A DNA stretch of 63,700 nucleotides, counting the filler, from Craspedostauros australis (taxonomy: Eukaryota), in assembly GCA_030167865.1 (NCBI GenBank). It is 11 parts of 11 records of this genome, joined end to end, with 100 filler letters (N's around TTAATTAATTAA, not from the genome) between each part and the next. Parts side by side here need not be neighbours in the genome. Positions count along the whole stretch, not along the records: positions 46,861 to 57,809 come from JALAGF010004569.1; 10 more parts are not named here. One strand, 5' to 3'. This document shows, in pieces, positions 18,090 to 59,471 of the stretch. The translations under genes were made by a program, and so were the position numbers. Below the pieces are notes generated by a model. The model did not search any database and was not told the DNA's origin. It was given only the letters and a program-made list of their open reading frames with translations. Position 1 is the stretch's first letter. Each line of letters begins with the position of its first letter.

Positions 18090-20259
18090 CTAATTGTTTT
18101 GTGTGCCGTCATCTGCAGATGCGCTCAACATGTCCTCCACAGTTCGCACGAAGCCATCGGTGTCCTCCTCGAAGGGATCATGTCCCACGCCTTCCAGCTT
18201 GACGAGGTTCAGATTGTCAAGATGTTTATACTTCGCAAACGTTCGTTCGACGATGGACGGCCGAATGACGGGATCATCGGCGCTGTAGATGACGTGCACG
18301 GATGTGTTGGGCAGCGCGAGGACTCGTTGCACCAGTTCTTCGTCGGAATATCCTTGGCGATTGGAAGCGGCTCTTGCAAAGTTCAATATGCCGCCTTCCC
18401 ATCCTTGCAAGATGGAAGGCCACATGAATGCTATGACGGAGCTCTGTGAGAGCTTGTTCTTCGGATCTGCCCAGCAGAAGGTCAAGCCACGTCTCCAGAA
18501 TCCTTGCTTTCCAACAACTCGGCGTAGGACGTAGGAGGCGGTGGGATCGAACACAGAGCCCCTGAGCTTGGATCGGAGACGCTGGAATGCCGACTTTGCT
18601 CTGTTTGGAGTTGCGTCACCTCTGGCCGTTGTCGCTGCTGCTGTTGTGCTCGTTGGTTGCAAGCCCAACGCAGGCGCCACCAAGACGACCGTCTTGGGCG
18701 TGGACTTCGGAAGGTTGAGTGCCATGTGGAGAGTCGCGATGCTGCCCATGGAATGTCCAAACAGCGCCACGGGTTCGTCATTGGTGTCAGTATCACTGTG
18801 AGCACTGCTGCCATTGGCATTCACAGCTCGCGATGATGTCGATGTCGACGTCGACGATGACGATGCTCGTCTGATGAGTTCCAAGCCGATCTTTGCGGAT
18901 GATGTGAATTGGTAGAGGTCTGATTCATCGTTGCCGTTATGATCCTCCTGTCCATCGTGCATACTTTGATTTGCGTTGTTTTCGCCATTCGCCGCTGGAT
19001 AGCTTGGTTGGTTTGATCGTATGGCTAGTTCCGTGAAACCAAAGCCAACAGCATCATGAGCGAGCCCCACTCTTGCCCCGAGACGATCCGTGAGAGCTGG
19101 GATGGCAGGAAGCCAGGAAAGGGAGTTGGCCCCGAAGCCATGGTTGAAGTACAGCACCTTGAATCTGCGCTTCGTTGAGCTCTGTTGCTGGCTGAGAGGT
19201 GGCACGTACTTCAGATGGTGCACACCTAGCGCGGAGGACGCGGATGGCGGTGCGGTGTCGGAAAGCGAGAATGGAATTCGTTCGAATCTGGAAAGTCTGG
19301 ATGGCAGGAAGTACTGACGCTTGAGGTTAGCGATGGAGATCCGGCTTGGTCCCAGTCCCAGCAGGTCCTGCAGCACCATCTGCGATACAAGCGCCAGCGC
19401 TGCGGTCTGAAAATACGAAAAATGCACGATACAAAGTGGCGGGTAGTACGCAGCAAGAATTGAAATTGATGGTGAGAGAAATGATGGTGATGATGATGTT
19501 ACTTGTGTTTGTCCATGACAAGTGATTCATCGTTGCCTCTGCATCGCAAGGTACCATAGCAAGTTGCAGGCAGAGCTGCGGCAATCACATGAGCACTCTA
19601 TGGCATTGACATCTGTACATGGTAACCGTACAGGCTATTATACGTCACATGGTATTATGTATGGTACTGCTTACCTGAATGAAAAACCTGAGCATCATGC
19701 GCCATCCCTTGATCTGAAGGCTTTCCTTGATGATGGAGGAACACGCCCCGAGGATGTTCTTCGCGAAGGGAACAACGATGCCGGACGCAATCGCTCTCCA
19801 CCTGTCCATGGATATCATGGAGAGGAGCGAAGTGCAGGCGGACACAAGCCACAGACCAAGCGTCGCAAAGATATTGAGCGGCCGGTAGTACGGATGCAAC
19901 GACTGGGGCATGTCGTAGAGCGTTGCGAGATCGGGCATCGGGGTTGGCGTGATGCGAATGGCAGACGAGGCTGGGAAGTCGTACTCTTCGCTCATGTCCG
20001 GCACGAGGACGGAGGAGTGCCGATCCGGATCCGACAGGGTGCCCACCTGCAGGCGAGTGGCGAGCCTTCCCCAAATCGCAGCAGCAGCAGCAGCTGACGA
20101 CGACGGCGGCAATGCCCGCGCATCCACAGGATCGTGGCGATCGCCAGATGGGAGACGAAGGGCCGTGGGGAAGAGCCACGATGTGGTCGCTGCGAAGCCG
20201 CTGTTAGGTGCCATCGTCGTCTTCATCACCTTCAGCGTCCTCGTCGTCTCCTTGACCAT
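18090..20259 (-). CDS. Alpha/beta hydrolase; exons 19675..20259 (or from ATG 20214) and 18090..19406
   Basis: HGFGA oxyanion motif, GHSMG nucleophile elbow, DDPVI acid, GHDPFEE His. Phase-0 intron CAG|GTAAGC...TTTCAG| spans 19407..19674. Start codon uncertain. Confidence 0.85.
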
Positions 20260-21405: not shown

Positions 21406-21762
21406 ATGAAGATCATGGATACTGAAGGTGAACTTCAAATGGTAAGTACTCATGGAGTAGGAACCAGTACTGAATGAACGGAGTGTCGAGTGCGGAGTAC
21501 GCATCGAGCACGGAGTATCGTGTGGGACGAGCACACGATGTCGAGAGAGAGAGTACAGAGAGGAGCAAGAGAGGATCTCGCGTACTGACTCATAGTCGGA
21601 GACTGAATCTGCGAATTAGATTGAAGCACCGAGAGCATCGGGCAAGAGAACGGGCGTACACCAAGAGGATTGGAGTAGCCAAGTAATGAAATAGCAACGA
21701 ACGACTATCAACCAACACCATCTTCCACGATCGTAGGTTACCGTGAGCGGAACTTGCCAACA
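21406..21762 (+). repeat. Partial 5' LTR of a copia element (family A)
   Basis: Homologous to ~53150-53509 (+) and to 54594 onwards (-). Ends GGTTACC...ACTTGCCAACA, exactly where homology with the 53509 copy stops. Confidence 0.75.
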
Positions 21763-21844
21763 CGTTTATAAACGATAGATTAGGGCGAGCCCGCGAATCG
21801 TATCGTGCGAGGAAGACGAACATCATTCAAGAGCAGCAGGCTGA

Positions 21845-24530
21845 ATGAGCGAGGAAGAGGAATCGAAAGACATCCCTCTGTCCCAACTGGCTATCAAGCA
21901 AGAAGAAGGTGCGAGTGAGACTCCACCACGAGAAGAGAAGGAAGTAGCAGCGGCTACTGTCCTATCAGGCGCAGACGCAAGCGCGATCGACGAGACCAAA
22001 GAAGAACGGTCTGCAAGGCTACATCGCGAGGAGGAGAGCATTCTCAAGGCAAGCAAGCAAGAGGAGACTGGTGTGACGGAGAGCATTCGCACTGCCAAAC
22101 AGAGTGGGAAAAGTGAGACACCACCAGGAGGAGAATTTGTGACGAAAACAATCTCCGCGCAACTACGAGCGAAAATCGAAGAATCGCTAANACAGAAACN
22201 NACGGAAATCAAGGGCGCGAGCGCACCAANAACGAAACAACGAATCAACATGGCGACATCAGCCAACATGAACAAGCGACGCATCAAGGCGCCGATGTTC
22301 AGCGGTGAACAGGAAGACTATAGCGCATGGGAGTCCCAAGCAAAAGCATACGCTCGTACACAGAAGACGAGAGACGTGATGTTGGGCAAGACGAAGATTT
22401 CAACAGTGAGTGAGATCGCAGCAGCCACCGACGAAATCAAGGAGGCAATGGAGGAAACCCACAAGCTGGCAGGCGACTGCTTCAGCGATCTGATCCTCAT
22501 GATGGATGCAGAGAAGGGAAAGGGCAAGCAGGCCATCCAATACATCAATCAATGCATCTCCAACGATTACCCTGACGGGGATCCACACGCGGCGTGGAAC
22601 GTTCTCGCGGAGAAGTTCCAGCCATCCGATGCGGTGACGAAGATCAAACTCAAGCGTCAATTCAACAACGAAAAGATGAAGAAAGGCTCAGACCCCGACG
22701 TATACATCACGCGACTCGAGATACTGCGCTCCCGTCTCCACGATGTCGGATACACGATCACGGACGAGGAAATGATCATGCAAATCCTCAGTACGGTGAG
22801 CGTGGAATACAGAACACACGTTGTGAATTTCAACCACCAACTCACATTCAATCCAACAGTTGTCACCATCAACACGATCAGAGGAGTACTCCGTGAAGCA
22901 CATGCCAAGCATCAAGGCGGAAAGACATACATCGACGACTTCCAAGACAGCAATACGAAGAGCAACGACGCCGGCTTCACAAGCACCGGTAACTTCAAGG
23001 GCACCTGCCACAACTGTGGTGTGTATGGTCACAGATCCACCGATTGCCCAGAACGCAAGAAATCGAACAACAAGAAAAACAACAACAACAACAACAAGAT
23101 GAACGGAAAGCGTAACAACAACCGCAACAAGGGAAGCGGCTTCAACGGGAAGTGCAACTACTGTGGCATCTTCGGACACCGCGAGGCGGAGTGCCGAAAG
23201 AAGAAGTTCAACGAGAACAAGAAGACCAACGAACAAGCCAATACGGCAACGGAAGGACACGACAAGAGCGGGCACGAGATGGTGCTCTCGGCAAAGGACT
23301 TGCCGCTCTGCATGTTGGTGTCCGACGACTACATTGAAGACTCCTTCTTCGATAACTTCGAATGCGTCGGAAGTGACGACGAAGTACAGGACGATGAGAT
23401 CGTCCCGGAGTGGCTCAGCGANGAGCCAATCATCCACGAGGTGGATCCAAGACGCGAAGTGAGCTACGAATGCTGCTTCAACGCGCACGACCTGATCGGT
23501 TCATACAGCGACGAAGCTGAGATGGACGACAAGGCCAACGATAGCGACATCGAAGAGGCCATGAGTGATGATGACAACGACACCAACGAGGACGGCGTAG
23601 ATGAAGACGCCGACGATGACGGCACAGATGAAGACGACGAATCGAACCGCGGCGCGGCGCCGCCTCCTCCAGCGGCGGGGAACAACAGATCGGGCATCTT
23701 CAACGAGGATGACAGCGACGAATCCGAAGACGGCAATCATCCAGCCGACAGCTTTAATCCGAACGAACGCGTCGTCTATCCAAGAGACATCGACTTCCCA
23801 CCGATTGAGAATCCCAATGAGTCCAACTTCCTCCATCGTCATGACACCATCCCATATGCAACAGAAACAGCATTGGTGATCCAAAAGCAACTCATCTTCG
23901 ATGCCGTAACGGAAGCAGGAATGAACCTCTTCCCAGGACACGTACAAGGAGTGCTCAGACCGATATGGGTGAACATGATGGGATCCATCCTATCCAAGAA
24001 CTTCGGATCAATCGAAGAGATTCTCGCCAACTCGGTCGTCATCAACCGCATATTGGAAGCGGACAACACGGAGACGATCCCAGAAACGGATCTGCACTTC
24101 ATCCTTGGAGGATGCATGCGTGTGCTCTTGCGAGAGCGATCACGCGTCCACCCATACGATCCAGCCACAGGATCACATCGGAGCAACACGATCCCATCGG
24201 ACTATGCACAACTGCTCAATAACATGGACGACGACGAAGATCACAATCCATACAACGAAGATGGAGTGCATGAAGATGAAGAGGCAGACGGCCTCATGGA
24301 TGAGATGGCCACAGCAGCTGTGGAGCAACTCCACAAGCTGAGCACCAAGCACAAGGACAAGGTCAACAAGGACACCTGGCTCGCCGACAGCGGAGCTTCG
24401 TGTCACATCGTCAACTCGGACGCCGCTCTATTCAACGTGCGGCACGTCAAGTCCTTCGTCCAAGTGGGAGACAGCACGAAGCTGGATTCTCCCAAAATGG
24501 GATCCATTCGCTTGAAGGTCAAGCAACGAG
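21845..24530 (+). mobile_element. Ty1/copia gag-pol (family A), open to the contig end
   Basis: DUF4219-like PMFSGEQEDYSAW, UBN2-like gag, two CCHC knuckles (CHNCGVYGHRSTDC, CNYCGIFGHREAEC), protease WLADSGASCH. Confidence 0.93.
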
Positions 24531-24708
24531 NNNNNNNNNNNNNNNNNNNNNNNNNNNNNNNNNNNNNNNNNNNNTTAATTAATTAANNNNNNNNNNNNNN
24601 NNNNNNNNNNNNNNNNNNNNNNNNNNNNNNCAAACCAGTGACAACAAGGGGCCAAAACTCCACAACTAGTGTTATCGTGAGTGCATCAACTGCGACCTGG
24701 AGGTAGTA

Positions 24709-32315: not shown

Positions 32316-33713
32316 GGCACCCGCAGCAGCGTCCTTGCTGCACAGGTCTTGGTTGCTGGCGAAGCTCCAACCGATCCGCTTGCCCAGAATTGGTCGAAAC
32401 TGAGATTGGGAGGTGTACATGCAACGCGGATCGCCGTTCGGAATGCAGCAAATCGATGACCGATGCGACGAACGATGCAACGGATGATGCGATGGCCGAT
32501 GCGATGGATGATCCGACGGCAGGAGCAAGGACTCTGGAAGGGTGGAGTGGAATGGAGTGGAGTGGAGTAAGATGAAGGACGTGTGCTGGATGGAGCAGGC
32601 AGTGCGGTAGAAATGAAACGACGGAGCAGATCGTTGGACGTTCGATGGTCAATGTTGTGGAACAATCCAATGAAATCCAATGCAATGCTGCCTCCTCTCG
32701 CGAAAACCGTCCAACGAATGGATTGCGTGGAGGAATGCCGCCTCTGGCCAATCCGCCTCTGCGCTCGTTTTCGCGCGATGTTCCAAAACTTCAAAATTCG
32801 AAAAATGCACGATCCGGAGCGACGCGGGACTCAGACAATCGATCCAAGAATCGGCGACGATCGAGGAGGCGTCGACCGTTCGGACTCGTTTCACGACTCC
32901 ATGTAGGCTTGTCTGATAGATGAGGCGTGTAGTGATCATTTCGAAACAGTTTTTTTTCACAGCCATCATCGCGAAACGGAACACTCATTTCAGGACTAAA
33001 CTGCCGACGTGTCAGATAGATGGGGCGTGCGGTACTCGTTGTTGGCGGTATTTGTGCGCAGACAGCTTCGAGGAATGGAACGACGAAACGCACAAGAAAA
33101 GAGGCCACAGATCGTGTTTTGTGCCATCGTGTTGTGCTTCCAGAAACAGAAAGAGGGTTGTGGACAGAAACAACCAAGAAAGCATCCAAGGGGGGCAGTT
33201 CAAAATGCAATAATTGGCTCTATTTCATAGCGTTTAAGTCATAAATTGCTTGTTTCCGCCTAGTTCTTATCCTCGACGGAATAATATGGAATTTTTGTTC
33301 TTTTTTGGATAATTGGTGCTTTCCCCCCAAAATTCGCACGAGTTGCTTTCGCTCTTCGTCATTGCTCCATTTCCCCACTTTACACTGTGTCGGTGTTTGC
33401 TGAGCGTGTTTTCGTCTCCGGTCGGCACAAAACAAGGCTGCTGTCTTGGGCCAGCACAGAGCACACAAAACTCACAACCCCAACACTCTCCACAGAGATC
33501 ATTGCTCCACAGAGCACTTCGTTCCTGTAACAATCACAATCACAACAACAACCACAACAGGTACACCAACATCACCACCGCAACAGTGTTTCGTCCATGG
33601 GTGGCTCCTGTATNNNNNNNNNNNNNNNNNNNNNNNNNNNNNNNNNNNNNNNNNNNNTTAATTAATTAANNNNNNNNNNNNNNNNNNNNNNNNNNNNNNN
33701 NNNNNNNNNNNNN

Positions 33714-35658
33714 GTTCGTCGAAGTGGCACTGGTTGCAAGCCTCGCCTGGTGTTGTCGGGATTTGAGTGCACACGCCGTCGCCAAGGGTGATGTCGGCGT
33801 TGAAGTAGAATCCGTATCCCATGAATTGGCACGAGTACAGTGCGGTGCAGGCCAACGCTCCGATTCTGGTGTTGCCCTCGAACTGGTTGTAGTAAGTTTC
33901 ATCGATAATATTACCCACCAGGTCGTACTCCGTGTAGGTGTAGTGCGAATTGACGTAGGAGCACGAACCGTTGTTTGCGCAGGAGCCCCTGCCGATGTTG
34001 ACAAACGAATTTCGCTTGTTGTCCGTGCCCATGTTGCCTCTCGTCGGGGTGGAAGTGAGGTACTCGGCAGTTCCGGCTCCCAGTGCCGCGCACGAATTCG
34101 TTCCGAGGCAAGAAAATGGTTGGACGATGCTGTATCCGTTGGCCTGTGCTCCGAGGGAGTAGCACGCGGAGCCGCCCAGGCAGGAGAATGGGCCGATGAT
34201 GCCAGTCCTCTCACTACCGGAGTTGAAGTTGAAGTAGGAGCAGGCTTTGTCCTGGCCGGGGTTTTGGCAGCTCGACTGGAACACGATCGTTTGCGGTTCG
34301 AGGTTGTCGCAGGAGTTCATTCCGATGCAGCTATTGGCGCTGATGCTGGCGACGCCGACCCAGCTGCAGTCGGCGGCACCTCCGGGGCAGCAGGTGTTGC
34401 CAGACTGTTGGCAAAAAGCGATGGCATCTGTGGCAGTACCCGTGAAGACTTCTCCAGTCGCGCTGGCGGCCTCCTGGAACTGGGCGAGGACTCCGGAGTT
34501 GTCCTTGATTCTGTCGAAGAGCGCGACTCCTTCAGTAATGCTGTCCTGGTTGGCAAAAATGCTGAGAAGATCGGTCTCGTTCTCGATGGTGGCGAGTAGG
34601 TTCTGGCCGTTGGTGTCTGATGGTGTTCCCAACTCCGCCAAGAACTGAACAATATTCGGCGCCAGGCCGCTGGTTGGTGCCGAAGTGGGTGTTGACGTAG
34701 GTGCTGATGTAGGTGCCGACGTGGGTGCTGATGTAGGTGCCGAAGTGGGTGCTGATGTAGGTGCCGAAGTAGGGGCAGACGTAGGTGCGCTGGTCGGTGC
34801 CGAAGTAGGGGCAGAAGTGGGAGCGCTCGTCGGCGCCGAAGTAGGGGCAGACGTTGGTGCGCTGGTCGGTGCCGCCGTGGGTGCGGTGGGTGCTGACGTT
34901 GGCTGCGAAGTCGGTGGGATGGTCCCGGATCGTGTCGGGCCCGCAGTTGGTGCTGCTGTTGGTGCGGTTGGGGACGATGTCGGTGCGCTGGTCGGCGCTG
35001 ATGTCGGGATGCTTGTCGGGGCCGATGTCGGGGCGCTTGTCGGAGCCGATGTCGGTGCGCTGGTCGGTGCTGATGTTGGGGCGCTTGTCGGAGCCGATGT
35101 CGGTGCGCTGGTCGGTGCTGATGTTGGGGCGCTTGTCGGAGCCGATGTCGGTGCGCTGGTCGGTGCTGATGTTGGGGCGCTTGTCGGAGCCGATGTCGGG
35201 GCGCTGGTCGGTGCTGATGTCGGTGCGCTGGTCGGTGCTGATGTTGGGGCGCTTGTCGGTGTCCTGGTCGGTGTGCTGGTCGGTGCCATGGTGACGTCTC
35301 CGTTCTTGGCGCCCTTGTTCATCTTCATGCCGTCCTTGTTCATCTTGCCGTCATCACTGTCGCTGGTCATCATGGTGGGTCCTTCCGTGGTCTTGGCCTT
35401 CTTCTTGTCCATCCCCCCGCCCGCACCAGCGGAGCTGTCCATGTCCTCCTTGGTGCGGCGGAGCCTCCTGGTGAGTCCGGTGATCTTCTCAACCGTCTTC
35501 TCCGAGTCGTCTCCGTAGTAAGTCCACGCGAGCTTGTTGGCTCCGACCTTGGCATCGTCTCTGGAGGGTGAATGCATGCCGGCAAGGAGCTTCTCATCTT
35601 CGACGGCGGAGGCGGCAGCGATGTGCGCCAAAACGAGTGAGCTGATGCGATACTTCAT
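33714..35658 (-). CDS. Secreted mucin-like PTSA-repeat protein with Cys-rich C-terminal repeats (3' truncated)
   Basis: Signal peptide MKYRISSLVLAHIAAASA, >40 PT[SA]x tetrapeptides, then IGxxSCxGxxxC repeats. Confidence 0.9.
34672..35285 (-). repeat. 12-bp coding minisatellite (PTSA) with a 48-bp higher-order period in 35030-35260
   Basis: GGGGCGCTTGTCGGAGCCGATGTCGGTGCGCTGGTCGGTGCTGATGTT recurs on the + strand. Confidence 0.95.
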
Positions 35659-36894
35659 GGTTGATGTGTGTGCGTGGTATCTGAGTTGAGTATTGATAGA
35701 CTAACGTGGAGGGAGGGCAGGGGGCGGATATTAGATATTGAAGCGTCTGCATTGTGGAGAGGTGCACGGTGCCATGCGTGCCGCACGAGTGAGTAGACCG
35801 AAGACGCCAGTGGGCAAAGGTATAGCGGCGGAATGGCAGGCAAAGATGCGGAAAAGAAGAGAAATGTGAGACAAAATGCCCAAGTTTGCTCCGGCGTTCT
35901 CCACTTGATTGGTATTGCGGGAGATCGCGTATCGCGGACTTATCACAGATGCATCGCACATCATCCATCGCTCTGGATCTCGTCTCGCGATGAGTGAAGG
36001 AGCTGCCGTGAACGGCTTGCACACAAAAAACGCAGTGGACCAGCGGAGGCGAGGACCGCAGGAGAATGACTATTTCCTATTCATCCTGGCACCACCCTCT
36101 GCATGTTTTTCATGTTGTGCCGTCCTGCACCCGGTCTTCGCGTTCTGTTTGATGAAGATACAAGACGACACATGGAATGGACCACGTGCTTGGCGTTGCT
36201 CTCGATCGGATCCATGCCGAAGGCCCATGGGCCCTTTGGTTTGTTGTATTGCCTGCGGTCCATGATCGCATCACTGGCACAGCTCCAGTGCACAAGCCGC
36301 ATCATAGAATTCGCCGCATCCAATCACATGAAAACAACCTTCCGACATACAGTATCATTGTGTATGCATGGTGATGTGCTAGTGCGTGTGTGGCAACTAT
36401 GCCTGGCGCAGCGCGGTGTGACTCACCGTGATGTTCGTGCTGTTTGCTGTCGCGGAATGGGAGTGATTGATTGCGTCTGCGTTTGAGCTGGAGCGGCCTT
36501 GAGATTTGTGAGAACGAAAATTGATGTTGGGATGGGACAACGGAGGTACGCAGAGAGTAGGTGCTTCCGCGGTGGTTGGCGGTTGTGCTCTGCAGGTGTG
36601 GACGCTGAAGACTGATCGTTTTTGAATCATTCTCCGCTTTCAGCCAACGTTTTCGTTTGCGTCATCATCTGCGCGTCTCGTGTCGCCGCGTGCTACATCA
36701 CAACAACGCGGCTCTGAACACCATCATGGCACCGTCGTGCCGTCGAAGCGCGCTGCAGTGCAGACCAGGGCCTGTTGTGCACAACAACAACACCNNNNNN
36801 NNNNNNNNNNNNNNNNNNNNNNNNNNNNNNNNNNNNNNTTAATTAATTAANNNNNNNNNNNNNNNNNNNNNNNNNNNNNNNNNNNNNNNNNNNN

Positions 36895-46760: not shown

Positions 46761-47099
46761 NNNNNNNNNNNNNNNNNNNNNNNNNNNNNNNNNNNNNNNN
46801 NNNNTTAATTAATTAANNNNNNNNNNNNNNNNNNNNNNNNNNNNNNNNNNNNNNNNNNNNCTTTTGCACCTCATCTTCACGCAGTAACACGCACATTTGC
46901 CGTGTTGTCTCCGTGTTAATTTCACTTGCAAATTGCATGAGACCTGTCATGTCTCTCTCATGCTCACAGTTCNNNNNNNNNNNNNNNNNNNNNNNNNNNN
47001 NNNNNNNNNNNNNNNNNNNNNNNNNACAGTAAACAAACACTCTCCTCACCAACAACAACGACTTGATCACTCTACGTTCTCGGTGCGGTATCCTTCACA

Positions 47100-50000
47100 C
47101 CCATCTACGATTACGTTCTAACAGAAGGAGTTGGAGGGTCCATCCCCATCCAATCCAAGGGCACACTGTCATGGACAATACTTGACAATGATGGCAGGCC
47201 ACTGCAGATTTAGATATCCAATGCTTACTACGCGCCACGGCTTCGCATCCATCTGTTCTGTCTGCAGCAATGGTCTGACCAAGGCCCTCACAATCACCAC
47301 TGCAGGCACCTGCGTACCTGCACGACATACGGCAACTACACTGTCCTGCGCTCCTCACGTTGCAAGGTCACAGTATATCATCATCCAGGCACCAACCTGC
47401 CTTTGATGTCTGTCGCCAACACCAAGTGACATGCGCCAGCATTCCTCACTACTTCCAGTCCTCCAAGCAACTCTGAACTTCTCAACATCAACAATGTCCC
47501 CGATATCATGATGGAGGTTCACGAAGATCCCAAGCTTGCCAAGTTGAGGCCCGATCCTCTCCAAGACAACAACACACTGGTCTGTGATCAGTTGGCAACA
47601 CATCCTGTTGGTGCGTCTGACGCACAAGGACAGCTACTCCGGTGGCATCATCACTTGGGACACCTACCCTTCCGTGTCTTGTGCAACATGGCGTCACACA
47701 GCATCATACCACGACACTTGGCCACGGCCAAGTTCCCTCTCTGCATCTATGGCAAAGCCGTCCGTCGGCACAGGCCAAACCATATCATGCACGTTGTCAA
47801 ACGAGCGCGATTCCCAGGGCATATAGTGTCAGTCAACCAGATTTTCTCCTGCCAGCCTGGGGTACTTCCGCAGCAAAACGGCACGCACACCTGGTCGCGA
47901 TACACATGCGTGACAGTGTTTGTTGATCAGTACCTTGGTATTGAGTACGTTCACTTGCAGCTCATCCAGTCTGGTGCCAACACACTGCAAGCCAATCAGG
48001 CTTTCGAGCGCTATGCTCACTCATTCGGTGTCTGCATACACCACTACCACCCCGACAAAGACAGATTCGCTGAGCAGCTGTTCCGCACGGCTGTCGCAGC
48101 AGCCAATCAAATCATCGCATTCTGTGGAGTCAATGCTCACCATCAGAATGGCGTCGCCGAGCGACGCATCCGCGACCTCCAAGAGTCCACTTGCTCGATG
48201 CTCTTGCATTCGCAGCACCATTGGCCTGATGTCATCCATCCGTCTCTATGGCTGTATGCTCTGCGTTACGCCTCTGAGATCCGAAGGAACGCTGCTCGAG
48301 AGGGAGGTATATCGCCACTCCAGCGATTCGCGCAGATCAAGGTCCAACCCTTGATGTAACACTTTCACACATTTGGATGCCCTGTATACATCCGCAAGGC
48401 CGCACTGCAACAGGGATCCCAGGTTCCCAAGTGGAGCAGCCGAGCCAAACATTGCCATATTCCTTGGCATGTCAGCTGAACATGCAAGCAGCGTACCTAT
48501 CGTTCTCAAGATCGACACAGGGTACATATCGCCACAGTTCAATCTGAACTTCGATGGCAGGTTCCAAACGGTCAAGACCAACCCACTAATGCGTCCTGTC
48601 GCATCGCAGTGGCAGCGTCTCACACACATCGACGAACCAGCCGAGCCCTCGCAACAGATTCGCTCCGAATGCATCACACGTGCTGTTCAGCACCAGCTTT
48701 CCGCAAGCACGCGTCCTCCAGGGACCACACACGCTGCACCTGATGCCAAGCCATTCCAGCTTGACATGCAGCACAAGATGCACGACCTTCCAAGGTCCAG
48801 CCTTCCAAGGCACAGTCTTCCAAGACAACCAGCAAGCTCACCTTCAGAGGGAGCTACGCCATCGCCACACAGAACGCATCACGATCTGCTACATCCGCAA
48901 CAGAATGTGCAGAGACCAACCAGACTACACTCCAACTCCAATCCTACCACACATACACTGCTCAATCCTTCCACGCATCTGACATCCTCAACATGAACTC
49001 GGGCGATCTGCACCCTATGTCATTCGCAGCAACACTCGCAGACGATGACACTATGTACTGGGGGCAAATGCAGAAGCAGCATGACTGTGACAAATTCATT
49101 GAAGCAATGCACAAAGAGATCGAAGACCACCAATCCAGACAACATTGGGAGGTCATTCAACGCACTCGTGTGCCAAAAAGGCACAAGATCCTGAAAGCTG
49201 TCTGGTCATTCAAACGCAAATGCAGACTTGCAACCGGCGAGATCTACAAGTGGAAAGCACGGCTACGCGTGCATGGAGGAGAGCAACAATATGGTGTCAA
49301 CTACTGGGAAACATTTGCACCTGTTGTGCAATGGTCCACCATCCAGACATTCCTCACCATGGCCGTCCAACAGCACTGGCACACTTGCCAAATCGACTTT
49401 TTGTTCTGGAGTTCCCACAAGCGGATGTGGAATGCGACATCTTCATGCAAGTACCTCAGGGGTGCAACATGGACGGAGACAGCAGGTCTCACGTTCTCCA
49501 ACTCAAGAAAAATCTGTACAGCACCAAGCAAGCAGCATTGGTATGGCATCGGCATGTGGTTGACAGCCTGATGCAGCATGGATTCCGGCAAAGCCAAGTT
49601 GACGAATGCCTTCTCTGCAAGGGCAACACATCCATTCTGCTGTACGTTGACGACACCATCATCATTGGCCCACGCAAACACGAGATCGATGACATCATCG
49701 AGCGCCTCAAGGCACGGTTCACACTAACCAACGAAGGCAACATGGATGATTATCTGGGCGTTCACATCCAACGTACTGATGACACCATCACACTCTCACA
49801 ACCGCAACTCATAGATCGAATCATACGAGCAGCCAAGATCGATCCTGACTCACCAGGACGAACCTATTCGACGCCAGCCGTCAAACCGCTCCTATACAAG
49901 GACACTGGTGGCCCTGCTGCCACTTGGCGATTCGAATATCAGTCAGTTGTGGGGATGCTCAACTTCCTCACATGATCAACGAGACCTGATATCTGCTTCG

Positions 50001-50635
50001 CAGTCCATCAATGCGCACGCTTCATGGCTCATCCGATGAAGTCACACAAAGATGCCATCGAATGGATTGTACGATACCTTGCTCACACATGGGATATGGG
50101 ACTCCGCATCTCACCTACCCAATGACTCCATTCACTGCTATGCTGATGCAGACTTCGCAGGAGGCTTCACACAAGCCAACAACGACCCCAACACGGCAAA
50201 AGTCGTACCGGATATGTCATCCTGTATGCAGGATTCCCCATCATATGGAACTCCAAACTGCAAACAGAAGTCGCACTCAGCACCACAGAAGCCAAGTACG
50301 TGGCTCTCAGCCAAGCTCTATGAGAGGTTATACCCATCATACACCTCATCAACGAAATGAAGCAGCACATATCGTCATTCGACACTTCTCTGCCAACAGT
50401 TCACTGCACAGCATTTGAGGACAACTCCGGTGCCCTCGAACTCGCAAACGCACCCAGAATGCGTCCTCGTACCAAACACATCAATGTCAAATACCATTAC
50501 TTCCATGAAGCTGTCAGCAAAGGGCTCATCACCATCGAACAGGTCGACACGTTGGACCAGATGGCCGATATATTCACCAAGCCCTTGGCACGTTCACTAT
50601 TCAAATCTCTGCGATTGCGACTATTGGGATGGTAA
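47100..50635 (+). pseudogene. Degenerate CoDi-type Ty1/copia pol (integrase-RT-RNase H)
   Basis: WHHHLGH, HQNGVAERRI, WKARL...YWETFAPVV, LYVDD, YADADFAG, FEDNSGA...RTKHINVKYH, QMADIFTKPL. Multiple frameshifts. Confidence 0.95.
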
Positions 50636-50668
50636 GCACGGTCCGCTCGTGCCACCGACAAGAGGGAG

Positions 50669-50858
50669 TGTGCAGATTAAGTGCCAATTCACGAATCTGG
50701 CCGAATCCGAACGATGATTGTCAATGGGCAGACGATACCGCACAAACGACGAGTAGGATCCACACTGAGCAAATGACCACCCTGCACGGACATAATTTTC
50801 AGAACAGATAGGTTTCACCCCATCTCCCACACTTCCGGTCACGTGAAAAACCTTCACA
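50669..50858 (+). repeat. 3' LTR (190 bp) after a PPT
   Basis: PPT AAGAGGGAG (50660-50668); termini TGTGCAG...CTTCACA. Confidence 0.75.
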
Positions 50859-51099
50859 AAGATTTGATTGTGCAGAAATATTTGCATATGAGAAGACACT
50901 TCTTCAACCACTGACCTCCAACCAAAACAAGAAACCTGATAGAGAATGGCTTGGGTTTGAGAGAAGTGCAAACCGAATCATCTTGAAATACATGAATACG
51001 ATCAACCAAGAGGTGCAGACAGCAGAAGAGAGAGAGAGAGAGATAGCTTAAGTAATCATATTTTGGTCTTACATCCACAACAACAACATCCATCATCAT

Positions 51100-51768
51100 T
51101 AGCAAAACAACATCAATTGTATGAACATCAATCATCCGTCGGCATAAGGCAACATGCCAATGATTGTTCTTAGCATAGTCGGCAAACCGAGGAAGAAACA
51201 ATTCGATATTGCTCAGGTACGGTAAGGCAATGGCATAGAAGTAGGTGTAGAAAGTACAAACAATGCAGGAGATGCAGATGTTGTCCATACTTAATCTCAG
51301 TTCCATGTCACAGAAACGTCCACGATGTGCCAGACAGTACAGCATGAGCAGCAATCCCATTTCATAGGATACCAAGTATTGGTTCTTGACCTGAATGCAT
51401 GCAGGGTCATTCTCACCAGACACTGCCTGGAACTTTGGCCAGAGACGGTCAGCCAAGCATTGGAGGTAGCATGCTTGGAAGCGGAAGTGAGGAATAGCTT
51501 CGGTGTCAGCCAATTCTAAGATGGCAATGTTTCTGTTCGTATACAAAGGAGGAGGACCCAATGGACGGAGATAGAGCTGCTGCATCTCTAGCACATGGCA
51601 GCCTAATGCAATAGCGTGACTGTAGTACTCCACAAGAATGGTGACACCAGTGTAGTTCAGACCCTGCACATCAATCTGCGAAAGCTGATTCACAGCCTCG
51701 ACAAATCGATCGTGGGCTTCTTGCAATGCCTGCCTCTCTGGAAGGGAGTTCCAAATACGCAGCACCAT
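51100..51768 (-). pseudogene. Truncated PIF/Harbinger-like transposase (N-terminal HTH region)
   Basis: HFRF...L..LADRL...LLLMLYCLAH...DME...ISCIV pattern; DDE core not seen. Confidence 0.6.
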
Positions 51769-52139
51769 TAGAAAGAGAAGGACCAGCTACAGTGCGTGGA
51801 GAAAGGTTGTATATGCGAAAGCGTGGTGAACACGGAAGAATTGAAGAAACCACGAGTATAGCATCAAGTGCAGTGTGGAAGAAATCTGTCATGCAGGTAC
51901 CAAAAACCGGAAGGAGGTGATGTGTCGACAGAGGCATCAGCAAATGTGATGTTCTTCAGCACGAATCAAACCGAACGTGACTAAATTAATCGCACAGTTT
52001 TGGCGCGAACGCAATATCGCTCGAGTTAATCCAAGCAGTATTCTGTCACGAATCAGTCCTGTGCGGTTTTCGTGCTCGAGATTCAATGCGAACCGCGACA
52101 TGACACAGGGGCCGGGGGAACAGAATGCGAAAGTCCTCT

Positions 52140-53509
52140 AATGGAACACACGAAAATGAGCAGAATTTCTGGAGGAAATTTGCAATCGACGATTTCTGAG
52201 AGAATTAGAACATCGTCCGTCCATCCATCAATGGTTGATAATCAGCAACTACACACAGGAAAAGGGCACCAAACACTGCACTTACTACGCCGCCAGGGTG
52301 ATCAATCCATCAGGTGGAGTTGGAGATGTTTGGTGTTCTTTGTTGTTCTAATAGGTTGTGTCCAATTGATGATTGAGTTTGGATTATGAGAACATGATCT
52401 CATCATTCCAAAGATGGTGCCTATTGCACGAGTTTCTAATGTGCTGCTCGATTACCTCGTGGTTTATCTCGCAGTCTTTCCTAAAACATTGCCCAAGATG
52501 GCATGTTGATTTACACGATATCNNNNNNNNNNNNNNNNNNNNNNNNNNNNNNNNNNNNNNNNNNNNNNNNNNNNNNNNNNNNTCTGTTTGATCATATATG
52601 GATTGATCCGTCTACGTCGACGAGGTGCATGCATCACCTCTGACAATGTTGTTCTGGATCCTAAATGTTGTTGCCACGTGCTCAATGATGCATTTGGCAT
52701 TGCTAGACAGGTCAGCATACCATGACTAAAATATAATCTCGATTCCGAGGATCACAATGACCGATCCTCTGACGTCATACGATGATGTCAGTGCCTACGT
52801 CAGGTTCGATGACTGTAGTGACTGAATCTCAATCGTGTAATCAAGACTCACTCGACTATACTCTCAAATCGAGTCGAATCAAAAATAATGAATCATGTTT
52901 CAGTCATGGGAGATAGGTACCTAATTTCGATCTAGATGTTGATAATGGTACCAAGAGAATCTCGAGGTACTTCCCAACTAAACCTCAGATGACGATATCA
53001 TCTGACAGGTTGCTGCATCACCAATGGAACATGACATCTGGAGAGCAGAAGGACGCCTACTGGCATTGACAGGATGTCATCGTGTCACCATGTCGACATC
53101 TGTCTCCAAGTCAGAGCAAGAGGCGAAGATCCGATGACCGAAGGACATCAGGATCATGGATATGGGAGATGAACTTCAAATGGTAAGTACTCATGGAGTA
53201 GGAGCCAGTACTGAATGAACGGAGTGTTGAATGTGGAGTACGCATCGAACATGGAGTATCGTGCAGCACGAAGTACACGATACTAAGACAAAGAGAGAGA
53301 GAATACAAAGAGCAGCGAGAGAGCATCTCGCACACCGACTCATAGTCAGAGACCAAATCTACAAAACAGATTGAAGCGCCAAGATCATCTGGCAAGAGAA
53401 CGGACACCGAGAGGATCGGAGTGCCAACGTAATGAAATAGCAAACGAACAACTATTAACCAACACCATCTTCCACGATCGTAGGTTACCGTGAGCGTAAC
53501 TTGCCAACA
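52140..53509 (+). repeat. Family A LTR copy (may start at TGTCACG, 52044); contains an N gap
   Basis: 53150-53509 matches 21410-21762. 52140-52230 and 52965-53155 are inverted matches to 55186-55277 and ~54960-55152. Confidence 0.7.
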
Positions 53510-55277
53510 ACTTTCAGGTTGAACGTGAGTTGGTGATGGAAGTTCACGATGTGAGTTTTGTATTCGTTGCTTACTGTGCTGAGGATCTGCATGATCATCT
53601 CCTCTTCGCTGATCGTGTATTCGACATCGTGGAGGCGGGAGCGTAGAAGCTCGAGCCATGTGATGTAGATGGCGGGGTCCATGTCTCTCTTCATCTTTTC
53701 ATTGTTGAATTGACGCTTGAGTTTGATTTTGGTTGCTGCATCGGATGGTTGGAACTTCTCCGCGAGAATGTTCCACACTTCATGTGGTAATCATCAGAGA
53801 CGCACTGGTTGATGTATTGGATGGCCTGCTTGCCCTTTCCCTTCTCTGCGTCTATCATGAGGATTAGATCGCTGAAGCAGTTGGCTGCCAGCTCATGGAC
53901 TTCCTCCATCGACTCCTTGTCTTTTCCTCTGGCTTCTCCGATCTCACTCATCGTTGGGATCTTCGTCTTGCCCAACATCACATCTATTGTCTTCTGCGTA
54001 CGCACATACGCCTTCGCTTGGGACTCCCAGGCATTGTAGTCCTCCTGACTACCACTGAACAACGGCGCCTTGATGCGTCGCTTGTTCATTTTGGCTGATG
54101 TCGCCATGTTGCTTCGTTGTTTTGTTGATGGTGCGCGCACGCTCCTGATTTCCGTTTGTTTCTGTGTGATGACTTTTTCAATTTTCGCTCATGTTTGCGC
54201 GGAGATGTGTTTCGTCACAAATTCTCCTCTGCGTGCCGTCTCACTTTTTCCGTGTTGCTTGGCTGTGCGAATGCTCTTCGTCACACCAGTCTCTTCTTGT
54301 TTGATCGCCTTGAGAATGCTCTTCTGCACGAATCATAGTCTCGCAAACCATTCCTCGTTGGTCTCATTGGTTGTGCTTCCTTCTTCGTTAGAGAGGACAG
54401 TGGGCGCACCCACTTCCTTCTGCTGTTGAAGTCAAGTCTCACTCGCACCTTCTTCTTGCTTGATAGCCGGATTGGACAGAGGGATGTCTTTCAATTCCTC
54501 TTCCTTGCTCATTCAGCCTACTGCTCTTGAAGGATGTTGTCTCCCTCGTACGATCCAATCCTCAGGCTTGCCCTGATCTATCGTTTATAAACATGTTGGC
54601 AAGTCTTGTGAACAGATACTTTGCGATTGTGGAAGACGGTATTGATTGTTACGATTATGTTTGCTATTTCATTACATAGACACTCCAATCCTCTCAGTGT
54701 CTCTTGTTCTCTTGCCTGATGCTCTTGGCATGTCTCTCTTGTTGGTCTGACTATGAGTTGGTATGAAAGATCCTCTCCCGCTGTTGTTCATGCTCTCTCT
54801 CGCTCTCTCTCTCAATGTTGCCTATTCACACCATACAATATTCCGTACTTGACATGTACTCCGCATGCAGTACATACTCCGTCGTTTTGTTCTCTGTTGG
54901 CCCATTACTCTGTGAGTAGTCGCCAATACTCCCACACTGCATTCCTCCTTGCATACTCACGATCTTGATGTCCCTTTAGTCATTGAATCTTTGCCTTCTT
55001 GATCTGATGTTGAGACGGATGTCGACATGGTGACACAATGGCATCTTGTCAACATCAGCTGTTGGTTCCATGGTCCTTCTGATTCCACATTCCATTGATG
55101 ATGCAATGGTCTGGCAGATGATATTGTCATTTGAGGTTTAGTTGGGAAGTACATCAAGCTTCGCTCGATGCCATACGTTTGCAGTGATGGATGGACGGAC
55201 GATGTTCCTGATTCTCTCAGAAATCGTTGATTGCAAATTTCCTCCAGAAATTCTGCTCATTTTCATGTGTTCCATTT
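53510..55277 (-). pseudogene. Decayed family A copia: 5' LTR remnant (54594-55277) and truncated gag (ATG 54512 to 53510)
   Basis: Clear paralogue of the 21845 gag (MATSAKMNKRRIKAPLFSG..., WNILAEKFQPSDA) with stops and frameshifts. Confidence 0.92.
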
Positions 55278-55324
55278 CCACTGTGATTTTGACCATCACA
55301 GCATACTATTGGCACTAATGTAGT

Positions 55325-55903
55325 TGTACCGTCCGTACATATATAAGAGAATAACGGGTGAACGATGCACATATACATGTACATCTTGACATGTACTCAC
55401 ATGTACATCTCGACAGCCCGGTCGGCAGCAGCGACGTTGCGACCAAAAAGCACAATCCCTTCGTCAACATCTACAAGGACGGCAAGGAGGATACCCTGCG
55501 GCGACAGATCCAGCGCACGAAGAACCGTGCCACCAACATCCTCCTCGAGAGCTCGCAAATCGACCAAATGGAGGATGATGATCAAGGCCTGCGCGTGGAC
55601 CAGCTGCTGCAGGAAACGGATGAGATCCTGGAGGAGGCCACCCTCGAGATCAAAAAGTCCGAACACAATCGCAACAGCTGGCATATCCGCAAGGCCATCT
55701 CGCTGTGTGACGACGATGATCTTGACGAAGATTGACAATTCTCACAGAATTCCTTACTTCTTACTTCTCTACTAATCCTATTAGTCAAATACTGGTCGGG
55801 GGGCTGTCTTCGGACAGCACTCACAAATAAACAACAAGAGCTCCGACCAGGGCACGAAACAACGGGCCAATACATCTTTCGTAGTTACTTGCACTGTTTG
55901 ACA
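55325..55903 (+). repeat. Putative 5' LTR (~579 bp) of copia family B
   Basis: TGTACC...TTTGACA termini, AATAAA at 55826, immediately followed by a PBS-like sequence. No second LTR in the window, so the left end is tentative. Confidence 0.6.
55391..55735 (+). CDS. 114-aa acidic helical ORF within the putative LTR
   Basis: Uninterrupted ORF with mostly C/G-ending codons, similar to the adjacent gag; no recognised family. Confidence 0.55.
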   Translation: MYSHVHLDSPVGSSDVATKKHNPFVNIYKDGKEDTLRRQIQRTKNRATNILLESSQIDQMEDDDQGLRVDQLLQETDEILEEATLEIKKSEHNRNSWHIRKAISLCDDDDLDED

Positions 55904-55924
55904 GATTCAGAGTCGTGCTTACCA
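55904..55924 (+). promoter_or_regulatory. Primer binding site complementary to the 5' half of tRNA-Gln(CUG)
   Basis: GATTCAGAGTC is the reverse complement of the anticodon arm GACTCTGAATC. GTGCTTACCA is the reverse complement of the D-arm-like TGGTAAGCAC. Confidence 0.75.
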
Positions 55925-55979
55925 ACACTGAGCAACACCCAACACCACATCACCTTTTACCATCGTACGAGTTACCACC

Positions 55980-57377
55980 ATGGACCGGCCAACCAACATC
56001 AACACCTTCAACAAGATCATCCAAGAGCTGGTACAGCTCGATGACGAAGAGATGGCGTTCATCGGCGAGAAACTCGGGAGAATCGATCGTGTCATCCGCA
56101 ACTCGGACGCCACCATCGTGGCGGCCTTGGCGCTCTCGCCAACGCTGTCATCAATCAACATCACCAACATCCTGCGCATCTTCGCATACGCAAGGTCCAA
56201 CACCATCACCGCACGCACCGATTGGGCAGCAATCGACTTGTTCAACGAAGCGAACAGCTACGAACCACCGGAAGTCAGCACGCCAGTTGCGAACGCTGCT
56301 GCTCAAGTGCGATCGGAGATGGCGATCAGGGAGGCAGCCGCAGCAGCGGATGCCACTGGGACAGCGGGTCGCGAAATCACCGTCAGCTCACCGAGCCGCG
56401 CGAAACGCACCCCGCGATCACCACGAACCCCACGGACTCCATCAGGATGGAAGTTCGACAAGATCAGCATGCCGGAGGCACCCGAATTCACCGGGAACAA
56501 CAGCGACTGGTATGACTGGAAGATCGCGTTCAAGCGACAGCTGGTTACATCCAGATACGCCGCGTACCTCGATGTCGACAAGCCATCGCATTTCGCAGAG
56601 GACATCGACGCGCAGCTCTACACTGTCCTGCACACCAAGACAGAGAAGGGATGCGCGGCATTCATCGTGGAAGCACACGAACCGAACGGCCATGACACAT
56701 ACCAGGCGCTCATACGCAACTATGAATCCGTCGACCACAAAGCTGAGGCCATCGCAGAGGAAGAACAGAAGATCGCCGAACTCCGTTACGACGGATCAGA
56801 GCCATTCCCAGTATTCGTCAACGCTTTCTCCAAGTGCATCCGTGTCATGGAGCAGAACGGAAAGCAGATGACCGACCAGCAGAAGATCGCGAAGTTCTTT
56901 CGCAACATCACCGACGACCGCTTCACAAGCGAGATGTCCAGATTCCGCAACACGGAACACTCCTTCAACGCAATTCGTGAGGCGTTCATGCAACATGACG
57001 CGCTCCTCACGAAATCGGAAGGACACTACTCTCCCAAGCGCAACCGTCGCTACCAACAGAAGGACACCAAGGATGACCGCAAGAGGCTGCGCGAATCCTC
57101 CAAGTGGGATCGCAAGGGCGCCGCATCGTTTCGGTTGCCGGACTCCGTCTTCCGTCGCATGCCGGTGAGCACTCAAGTGCTCCTCGTCGAAGCATCTCGT
57201 CACTTCCGCACCACTGGGAAACCAATCGATGAGGAAACCCTCAAGCGCAACAAGCCAACAGAGTACGCGCGCAACCTGGAGTTGCCCATGACCCAGCGAG
57301 GACCCAAGCGGCCTCGCACGGGCGATCACAAGACCGGACGACCTGGCACCCAAGGACCATGGAACGCCGGTTCTTGA
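55980..57377 (+). mobile_element. gag of copia-like (CoDi) family B
   Basis: PEFTGNNSDWYDWK, and YDGSEPFPVFVNAF...MTDQQKIAKFFRNI (UBN2-like); basic C-terminus; intact 465 aa. Confidence 0.85.
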
Positions 57378-57809
57378 CAATCAAAGACGGGCACAACTCG
57401 CCGTCAGTCGGAGATTGTCATCCACCTCAAACCCCGCGACTGTAGGGGGGCGAGCGTGACGACCGCAGCGGGAATGCCCGGACGTGCACGTCCGGTGGCA
57501 CCACAAGAGTCCCGTCCGTGCACAACCCACCCGACAGTGGAGCACTGCATCCGAAGGGCAAGAGTAACGAACGATAGCCAAGGCTTTATCATCCTAGACT
57601 CAGGGGCGGACGGAGACATCGTTCATGCGTCGGGCTGGGAGGTGACCCACACACACCAACAAGAGTTTCGTGCCCGAGGGGCGACGATCAACTCACCAAT
57701 CGAGACATTCCAGATGGTCGACGCCGTGGCAGCATACGAGCCCCCATCAGGCGGCGTGATCCTCATCAAAGCAAACTACGTGGCTCTCGACAAGCATCCA
57801 CAGCAGACG
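57378..57809 (+). mobile_element. pol N-terminus (aspartic protease), in frame with gag after a single UGA
   Basis: No stops from 57378 to the contig end. IILDSGAD active site and VDAVAAYE...VILIKAN, a CoDi-type protease. Confidence 0.85.
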
Positions 57810-57909: not shown

Positions 57910-59471
57910 CACTGTGGGTAGCCATAAGCCGGTCAAACGTAATGCGTTGTCCGCGCTTCTCCAGGCTCATCACAACGCCGTGGTTGCTGATGTCGAAGCC
58001 GCTCTCAAGCGCTTTGTTGATGCTGAGAAGGTTCACCCACAAATTGGGCACGAACTTCACGTGCTTGAGGAGGATGGTTGCGGTGGTNNNNNNNNNNNNN
58101 NNNNNNNNNNNNNNNNNNNNNNNNNNNNNNNNNNNNNNNNNNNNNNNNNNNNNNNNNNNNNNNNNNNNNNNNNNNNNNNNNNNNNNNNNNGTCATCCCCT
58201 CGTCGTTGTTGGTCAGGTGGCACGAGGCACCTGAGTCGCCCAACCAAGTGTTTGCCTCATGGCGGTCTGGGGCGAGTGTGATGCGGCGTTCTTCGACGCC
58301 GTCGATGTCGCCGACCACCATTGCCATGTCTGGTTGCGGGTTTCTCTCGCTGTAGACGGGGAGTTCTGGGAACTCACCTGGGCCGCGAACTCCGTAGTGG
58401 CCTGGGTGGTACTTCCACATGACTTGGAGTGCTCCACGCGAGGCCAGGCTCCCGATGAGTCCATGGTGGATGGCTGGCAGCTGCTCCTTCTCCAGCCTTT
58501 CGTTGATGAACGGCATGTTCTTCATGACGTTGAACGGGGTCATCATCCCGATCTCGCGTAGGAGGAAGTAGAGGGTGCGAGCATCCGCGCAAGTGCGTCT
58601 GTCTCTCGACTTGTACTCCTTCACTGTGTCGAGGCATAGTAGGGCAAGCTCGCAGCGCACACTGTCAGCCGGCATGGCGTTGCTCAATGAGTATCGCACT
58701 GCGAGTGCGAGGGACTCCTCCTTTGCGAGCATTGCGCGGCGTTCATCGCGTTCTTCGTGGGTTGTCGGTTTCACCACGTCCGTTCCTTCCGGTAGATCGA
58801 TGAGGAATGGCTGGGCTGGGCAGTCGACGCAGTACGAGTAGATGTACCCTTGTTTGAAGCATAATGGACATGATGCCCATCCTTGGTACATTGCGCGCGC
58901 TGCTACTTCAATCGCCTTCTCGATGGGAGGCTTGTTGGTGGAAAGCGAGAAGATAGGCTCTCTGCAGATGTCTTCCGCTCCGATCACCATTGCCACTTCA
59001 TTGGTAGACTCCTCGTCGGTGCTGACGAGGTCTTCATCGTAGATGACTTCATCGAAGAACCCGTCGTCATCGGTGGACTCGTCTTCGGACGGGAAGAGTT
59101 CGCGGTTGATGCGCTCGGCGGCGACCGCCGGTGGTCCGTAGTGACCATACACCCCTGGGTGGTGGGCCGCCCGCTCTTCAGCTGTCCACTCGGAGCCTTG
59201 GTTTGGCTCTTCGTTGCCTTGGTCGGCCATCTCTTCGTCGGTGGACGTGAGGGCGAGGTCTTCGGTGGTCTCCTCTTCGGGAGGCATCATGGCGTAGTCG
59301 TTGCTCATGTTTTTCTTGATGTTCGCAATTTCTTGGGTTGTTACGAGTCTTGGGTTGGTCACATTTTTGACCTCAGTCGAATCAAGATCGAACTCGTTGG
59401 TGAGGAAGCACAGCATTTCCGTGCTATCCATGGACTTGTCGTCTTCGGGCAACCAGATGGGCTCCTCGATC
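57910..59471 (-). mobile_element. Ty1/copia fragment: long gag-protease spacer and protease
   Basis: WLGDSGASCH and LKHVKFVPNLWVNLLSI. Spacer contains CPLCFKQGYIYSYCVDC. Confidence 0.88.

Follow-up and report, generated by a model that had tools for sequence, protein, structure and literature searches.

A probable Ty1/copia retrotransposon of Craspedostauros australis with a knuckle-less gag, a putative internal tRNA-Gln(CUG) primer site and a candidate leaky UGA

Background

Half-tRNA priming is known from Drosophila copia, and priming from an internal tRNA site is shared by copia, Ty5 and Tca2. This study describes the 5' part of a long terminal repeat (LTR) retrotransposon, probably of the Ty1/copia superfamily, which occupies the end of one scaffold (JALAGF010004569.1) in a 63,700-nt stretch of the Craspedostauros australis assembly GCA_030167865.1 (hereafter the window). 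Throughout the window, short contigs are joined by 44 N, TTAATTAATTAA and another 44 N. Since it is a concatenation, adjacency across contig joints is meaningless, and all positions given below count along the whole joined stretch. The scaffold spans 46861-57809 and is followed by Ns from 57810. The element is cut off by this contig end within its putative protease and its integrase and reverse transcriptase (RT) are therefore absent here, as the first-pass annotation of this DNA had anticipated.

Several described systems share traits with this element. Among plant copia elements, primer binding sites (PBSs) of the half-tRNA type were reported for Osser and Bryco (one half of tRNA-Met) and for Bianca (one half of tRNA-Ile) (Neumann et al. 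2019, PMC6317226). The CoDi elements, whose assignment to CoDi1-7 rests on RT, were described with LTRs of 153-844 bp, with at most a single stop or frameshift separating gag from pol in most cases and with CCHC fingers in CoDi6.2-6.5 as the only families of the set; the text of that paper is silent on PBS types (Maumus et al. 2009, PMC2806351). Tca2 carries gag and pol in one frame separated by UGA (PMC2194720). This arrangement has been called rarely observed in copia-type elements and, in the account given there, neither VdLTRE5 nor Tca2 displays a CARYYA motif (PMC3441728). An in-frame stop was also described as being used by Ty3/gypsy elements of fission yeast (bioRxiv 10.1101/2022.12.06.519325). 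Finally, UAG-CAR-YYA is presented as the type I readthrough signal and is stated to be active with UGA and UAA as well (Firth and Brierley 2012, PMC3542737).

Relatives and affiliation of the element

The read-through product of the element (610 residues, with the stop entered as X) was compared by phmmer with 1.84 billion representative proteins. This search uncovered 38 relatives at E values up to 0.001, of which two were still found with a cutoff of 1e-10 and none with one of 1e-30, with identity percentages ranging from 15 to 30. The top relative, P0002, is a 436-residue protein limited to gag (E 1.8e-28, 30% identity by phmmer); BLASTP of P0002 against the gag of the element gave 28% identity across 351 columns. 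A word-index protein search with gag at near lengths returned no hit, whereas the full phmmer search provided the 38 relatives. Their sources were JGI, ENA and Logan, an MMETSP transcript (P0040) and the diatom Mayamaea pseudoterrestris (P0024 and P0019). Relative P0008 (NCBI MHA7927749.1) is recorded under a Marinobacter metagenome-assembled genome, as a hypothetical protein; its contig measures 1452 bp and is probably diatom DNA that ended up in the bin of a bacterium.

When 41 aligned members of this family were submitted to Pfam (E up to 0.001), the copia-type gag PF14223 was recognized in 21 and PF03732 in six, while zf-CCHC was found in none. In P0006, P0011, P0033, P0044 and P0045, gag is followed by a protease-like D-x-G and a D..D..E region in one and the same open reading frame (ORF). 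P0044 further displays RVT_2 at residues 1213-1395, and a D..D..E pattern, read by eye, separates it from the protease-like part. Because this copia-type RT lies about 650 residues after the protease, the domain order in P0044 is that of Ty1/copia. The whole P0044 protein gave no sequence match in the PDB.

Likewise, the gag of the element itself is predicted to contain a copia-like capsid. It was modelled with AlphaFold2 from a 41-row alignment (mean predicted local distance difference test, pLDDT, 77.9), and residues 164-347 were matched best by the capsid of Drosophila copia (8vvw_A; E 1.1e-3 with Foldseek and, with VIA, Z 13.9, root-mean-square deviation 5.6, 178 of 184 residues aligned). 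The Ty1 capsid C-terminal domain was matched with Z 12-13 and a deviation of about 2 over about 90 residues. In the model, the fold of this core is that of the capsids of Drosophila copia and of yeast Ty1 (PDB 8vvw, 8s41, 7nlh and 9rxw). Sequence identity to them is 8-14%, and the complete gag has in addition a helical domain at its N terminus and a lengthy linker modelled as disordered.

Pfam gave no hit in the element's own gag or in its protease region, which weighs against this affiliation; PDB sequences gave no match to the protease region either. The missing Pfam hits and the top identity of 30% to any relative would suit a lineage lying outside Ty1/copia. Yet, relatives match the copia gag family, one of them also carries RVT_2, and the best matches of the capsid core are the capsids of copia and Ty1, which makes a position outside the superfamily highly improbable. 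In the first-pass annotation, the copia placement had relied on resemblance of gag and protease only; with the capsid fold and the PF14223 and RVT_2 matches of the family, it is now more than resemblance. The most probable reading is that these 2.1-2.5 kb are the 5' part of an LTR retrotransposon of the Ty1/copia superfamily, belonging to a knuckle-less gag family of diatoms and marine samples.

The proposal of a new retroelement lineage, put forward on the co-occurrence of five features, is not supported. Four of the five are present in the sequence and the locus is indeed a retroelement 5' end; the placement of an ORF within the LTR was not confirmed as proposed (see below). The 38 gag relatives, the 21 PF14223 matches, the RVT_2 of P0044 and the capsid fold all speak for Ty1/copia. 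Moreover, each oddity has a precedent in this superfamily: the absence of a knuckle in most CoDi groups, which lack CCHC, half-tRNA priming in the known Met, Ile and Arg primers, and the stop at the end of gag in the gag-UGA-pol organization of Tca2 and VdLTRE5. On present evidence, the element is a divergent Ty1/copia member and a new lineage is unwarranted.

The CoDi elements, as described (PMC2806351), are close in several respects: a diatom-type host and relatives, a gag devoid of CCHC (as in all but CoDi6.2-6.5) and TG/CA ends of the LTR. CoDi groups are defined by RT, whereas the present element is known without it and no relative exceeds 30% identity to its gag.

Gag organization

Gag displays neither a C-x2-C-x4-H-x4-C match nor a Pfam zf-CCHC hit and contains two cysteines in all, in full agreement with the knuckle-less gag noticed at first pass. 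The basic tail and the Ser/Thr-Pro cluster reported at the same time were recovered as well. The isoelectric point (pI) alternates along the protein, with 4.6 for residues 1-125, 12.0 for residues 126-160, 5.4 for residues 161-348 and 11.1 for the tail (residues 349-465). Five Ser/Thr-Pro dipeptides are gathered at residues 137-154, within a linker modelled as disordered (pLDDT below 50 at residues 127-158); at the equivalent position, relatives carry Pro/Ala-rich linkers. If Gag binds nucleic acid at all, it would do so via its basic regions and not via a zinc knuckle.

A five-helix N-terminal domain precedes the capsid. It is confidently folded (pLDDT above 90) throughout the gag family, relatives P0005-P0007, P0011 and P0024 included. 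Folded alone, this domain found its best matches among SAM and helix-hairpin-helix domains, with Z values of 5-6.5 that are below the reliable level. It might replace the zinc knuckle or drive oligomerization.

The gag-pol junction

Between 55980 and 57809, the reading frame comprises 465 codons, one TGA (57375-57377) and 144 open codons, this TGA being the sole stop in 610 codons. It is directly followed by CAA-TCA, the only CARYYA among the 609 in-frame hexamers (the window-wide rate of the motif is 0.2%). Further downstream, a basic stretch leads to ILDSGADGD, whose DSGA (57597-57608) belongs to a region homologous to the same region of the relatives. Homology to P0006, P0007, P0044 and P0045 continues beyond the stop, each of them being aligned across it in a single tblastn match. 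P0002 and P0040, encoded by a JGI contig and an MMETSP transcript respectively, differ at 6 of 436 residues (99% identity), and residue 436 is the last one in each of them, about ten residues short of the position equivalent to the TGA.

This configuration argues for programmed readthrough of the UGA, which we consider a likely interpretation of the sequence. Most ribosomes would stop at the UGA (57375) and deliver the 465-aa Gag, while a minority would read through UGA-CAA-UCA and yield Gag-Pol. Of the readthrough proposed at first pass, the single in-frame TGA and the open frame beyond it are matters of observation, as is the CAA-TCA context, which was not part of that annotation; the translational event is deduced from them.

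Several points weigh against readthrough. Distant relatives P0006 (923 aa), P0007, P0011, P0033 and P0045 proceed from gag into the protease without interruption. The TGA may accordingly be a nonsense mutation peculiar to this copy, which would then be dead, within a family that normally makes a single gag-pol polyprotein without any readthrough. The element is present as one truncated copy, so that no feature is shown to be conserved, the stop included. Furthermore, the RNA 3' of the stop displayed no significant structure (z -0.79, 0.09 versus shuffles). Nonetheless, a chance mutation would have had to produce the sole stop in the frame precisely within the gag-protease linker, just ahead of its only in-frame CARYYA, and the closest relative has a gag ending near the same place in two nearly identical copies. 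A private mutation is the less likely of the two readings.

Three other explanations of the stop were rejected. The stop codon lies inside an 8-bp stem, formed by TGACAATC and GATTGTCA 38 nt downstream (57375-57420), with a folding energy no better than that of shuffles; despite this stem, RNA structure was thus discarded as the readthrough signal. Removal of the stop by an intron was dismissed as well, since the sole GT...AG span (read by eye) measures 38 nt and shifts the frame. Finally, use of TGA as a sense codon was set aside: the frame contains one TGA against seven TGG Trp codons, and two of six other long ORFs end in TGA.

Compared with known cases, the junction resembles type I (tobamovirus-type) readthrough, with a stop, then CAR-YYA, and an in-frame homologous ORF downstream; natural cases are described as mostly UAG in plant RNA viruses, in contrast to the UGA and the diatom host encountered here (PMC3542737). 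Among copia-type elements, Tca2 of Candida albicans provides a close parallel, both in its one-frame gag-UGA-pol and in a PBS matching the inner part of a tRNA other than the initiator (PMC2194720, PMC4139406). VdLTRE5 of Verticillium is likewise copia-type with a UGA between gag and pol. As reported, VdLTRE5 is devoid of CARYYA, and Tca2 also lacks it, its flanking sequence driving no readthrough in yeast, whereas the present element displays the motif (PMC3441728). A canonical CARYYA after UGA in such an element may thus be new and, within the literature searched, it would be the first canonical type I signal in an LTR retrotransposon.

The primer binding site

A putative PBS follows the ...TTGACA at the presumed end of the LTR. 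The pattern GATTCAGAGTC-N{0,6}-GTGCTWACC, drawn from positions 55904-55923, occurred once in the window and in none of 100 shuffles. In viral contigs it was met in five stretches, all five located inside tRNA-Gln(ctg) genes as predicted by ARAGORN. Positions 55902-55914 are an exact 13-nt complement of tRNA positions 30-42 in three of these five genes and match over 11 nt in the other two. The complement of the element also shows tRNA positions 16-26 and 10-13, and no T arm. By comparison, 12 non-Gln tRNAs of the same viral loci reached 5-8 nt anywhere in 55733-55979, and Gln(ttg) reached 7-9. Because of the 13-nt complement, the missing T arm and the poor performance of non-Gln tRNAs, the identification of the PBS as an internal site of the tRNA-Gln(CUG) type, and not a 3'-end site, stands as a reading of the sequence.

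The assignment has its weak sides. With respect to the viral tRNA-Gln genes, the PBS lacks about 4 nt around positions 26-30, together with 2 nt from the D loop. These genes are viral surrogates, chosen by a pattern from the element itself, and may differ from those of the host. In addition, the Rfam tRNA model did not match the PBS, even when stretches were cut at the presumed primer end. ARAGORN detected no tRNA in the window, and the exact 20-nt PBS had no match in metagenome contigs and genome contigs. The half-tRNA-Gln priming suggested at first pass is therefore borne out as far as complementarity to an internal tRNA-Gln(ctg) region goes, with the two gaps and the lack of an Rfam match on the other side and priming itself as a deduction. 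A conventional PBS at TGGTCGGGG (55794) was also considered and rejected: its complement would be a tRNA starting with C, no model matched it and the stretch lies within a hairpin.

In the mechanism that we propose, a 5' fragment of tRNA-Gln(CUG) would prime minus-strand DNA, its anticodon stem-loop pairing with 55902/55904-55914 just past an LTR ending in ACA. Such a primer would differ from the tRNA-Met and tRNA-Ile halves reported for Osser, Bryco and Bianca (PMC6317226), as well as from the tRNA-Arg(UCU) given for Tca2 (PMC2194720, PMC4139406). No report of a half-tRNA-Gln primer was found in a limited literature search, and Gln(CUG) may thus be new as a half-tRNA primer.

LTR limits and the upstream ORF

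A single LTR is available, and its limits are accordingly proposed with caution. The 3' limit at 55903 is set solely by ACA and the adjoining PBS, which also has to be counted against the picture given above. For the 5' limit, two positions compete, 55325 and 55733, resulting in LTRs of 579 and 171 bp, respectively; both sizes are covered by the range given for CoDi LTRs (PMC2806351). The repeat structure located upstream ends at 55276 and is of no help on this edge.

The question matters for an ORF of 114 aa, which displays a strong coding signature. Its GC content by codon position is 0.61/0.29/0.75, and the third-position value is close to that of gag (0.72). It scored 0.40 bits/codon under a model built from five other ORFs of the window and 0.31 under a gag-protease model, and none of 5000 shuffles reached either value. 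The other two plus-strand frames were negative, the opposite-strand frame obtained 0.32 and 0.20, and all six frames were negative across 55736-55975. By its length alone the ORF is not significant: when 55325-55979 was dinucleotide-shuffled 2000 times, 7.6% of the results contained an ATG ORF of at least that size, and a different frame holds an overlapping ORF of 136 aa. No homologue was detected: Pfam matches were sub-threshold only, near and longer protein searches were negative, the Atlas gave no usable hit, and comparison with the PDB gave only NMD3 (E 0.03).

In the short version of the LTR, starting at 55733, the 114-aa ORF and the TATA box would be flanking coding sequence interrupted by the element, with the TGA of the LTR supplying the stop; its assignment to the LTR would then be an artefact of where the boundary was assumed. 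The TG at the ORF stop forms a terminal inverted repeat of 5/6 with the LTR end, against 3/6 for a start at 55325, and the coding signature ends exactly at 55733-55735. The 171 bp hold the hairpin and AATAAA, and LTRs of 153 bp are on record in CoDi elements (PMC2806351). Besides, the last ATG before gag stands at 55716 and the ATG-free leader begins at 55719; 261 nt free of ATG were seen in 637 of 20000 shuffles and in 8 of 1160 window tiles of that length. The leader is consistent with transcription, and genomic RNA would start downstream of 55718. This version comes close to an even chance, several observations being at odds with it: TATA (55340), ORF and AATAAA (55826) make a neat unit inside the 579 bp bounded by TGT...ACA, the ORF has no homologue among host proteins either, and the terminal repeat match was sought after the fact. 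The ratio of observed to expected CpG in 55325-55790 (1.07) also resembles that of 55791-57809 (1.14) and not that of 50000-55324 (0.78). These ratios agree with the CpG-rich element described at first pass.

Alternatively, the ORF would be an accessory gene inside a 579-bp LTR (in U3 or in a long R), similar to genes encoded by retroviral LTRs. The coding signature, a third-position GC content comparable to that of gag and the element-like CpG ratio are all in its favour, as is the arrangement between TGT and ACA, where TATATAAG precedes the ATG by 44 nt and AATAAA follows the stop at a distance of 91 nt. What speaks against an LTR gene is the lack of a homologue in any search, the frequency of such lengths in shuffles and a gag leader that is ATG-free only downstream of the ORF; the start at 55325 is marked by TGT alone, with no second copy to support it. 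We regard this alternative as tentative. Since the stop of the ORF coincides with a possible start of a 171-bp LTR, the ORF may lie outside the element. An accessory gene encoded in U3 and a flanking ORF interrupted by the element are about equally likely, and a smaller share of the probability goes to neither reading. The LTR ORF of the first-pass annotation is to this extent real, with its coding signature, and its location within an LTR was not confirmed. A perfect 6-bp hairpin with a TTCG loop was also observed 8 nt 5' of AATAAA, in the presumed R region.

Features of the locus are collected in Table 1.

Table 1. Positions of the features discussed, counted along the window
Feature	Position	Strand	Remarks
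U3 of a 579-bp LTR, or flanking DNA outside the element	55325-55732	+	TGT at 55325, TATATAAG at 55340-55347
114-aa ORF	55391-55735	+	strong coding signature, no homologue; TGA stop (55733-55735) overlaps TG of the alternative LTR start
ATG-free leader	55719-55979	+	261 nt before gag start; consistent with a transcribed leader
Possible short LTR (171 bp, TGACAA...TTGACA), or R-U5 of a long LTR	55733-55903	+	from sequence
Hairpin GCTGTC-TTCG-GACAGC	55803-55818	+	within the 171-bp stretch
AATAAA	55826-55831	+	within the 171-bp stretch
Putative primer binding site	55902-55939	+	13 nt complementary to tRNA-Gln(CUG) positions 30-42, then degenerate D-arm/5' complement
gag	55980-57377	+	465 aa, ends in TGA
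gag, N-terminal helical domain	55998-56252 (aa 7-91)	+	AlphaFold2 model
gag, disordered linker	aa 127-158; Ser/Thr-Pro cluster 56388-56444	+	AlphaFold2 model, pLDDT
gag, capsid core	56469-57020 (aa 164-347)	+	fold match
gag, basic tail	residues 349-465	+	pI 11.1
TGA stop, then CAA TCA	57375-57383	+	CAR-YYA type I readthrough motif
pol start, in gag frame	57378-57809	+	basic linker, putative aspartic protease; DSG at 57597-57605

A distinct diatom copia clade would combine tRNA-Gln(CUG) 5'-half priming, Gag-Pol readthrough at UGA-CAR-YYA and an LTR gene with a TATA box and a poly(A) signal of its own, three traits that are jointly undescribed. We consider such a clade improbable. At present, with a single truncated copy, the outcome is mainly one of annotation. 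Should the readthrough signal and the tRNA-Gln half primer be confirmed in other copies, a further tRNA would join the known half-tRNA primers and a leaky-stop signal of plant virus type would be at work in a stramenopile retrotransposon. This would bear on how the gag:pol ratio is set in copia elements, where gag-stop-pol has been called rare (PMC3441728), and would offer diatom genetics a compact readthrough cassette of natural origin. The more surprising outcome would be a genuine gene within the LTR, if there is one.

Copy number and genomic setting

No second copy or repeat of the 5' end of the element occurred within the window, and tblastn with eight proteins revealed no further piece of the same lineage there. 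Patterns from the alignment of the gag trio recovered no relative from viral contigs (151 matches), genome contigs (54) or metagenome contigs (308). The metagenome collection evidently does not include the contig of P0002, since both peptide patterns fit P0002 and its contig was not recovered.

Other retroelements were encountered in the vicinity. Directly upstream of the studied element, 52140-55276 is occupied by a head-to-head or rearranged element: a copia-like gag remnant on the minus strand (53485-54107), with a frame break, lies between inverted copies of one sequence, whose arms (approximately 52140-53480 and 54624-55276) display 76-96% complementarity in seven pieces. A different copia-type element is found on the same scaffold at 47430-50080 (+), with a gag_pre-integrs hit and RVT_2 (E 1e-27), so that the scaffold appears as a nest of retroelements.

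Elsewhere in the window, a copia element at 21406-24586 (+) has a 913-aa ORF in which PF14223 gag is combined in the same frame with a CCHC knuckle and Pol_BBD; as this ORF carries CCHC, gags with and without knuckle coexist in the same genome. The region upstream of it (21406-21767) is 88-93% identical to 53147-53514. At 57911-59431 (-), another gag-protease ORF displays a DSGAS motif and no stop between gag and protease, and gave no Pfam hit. For a host gene of the window (18093-19526, minus strand), the nearest Atlas clusters were eukaryotic and belonged most often to Bacillariophyta, which serves as a lead only. Finally, a long array of 12-nt tandem repeats (34605-35323) was observed inside a 680-aa ORF (33658-35700, minus strand) that matches the Pfam PT disordered repeat.

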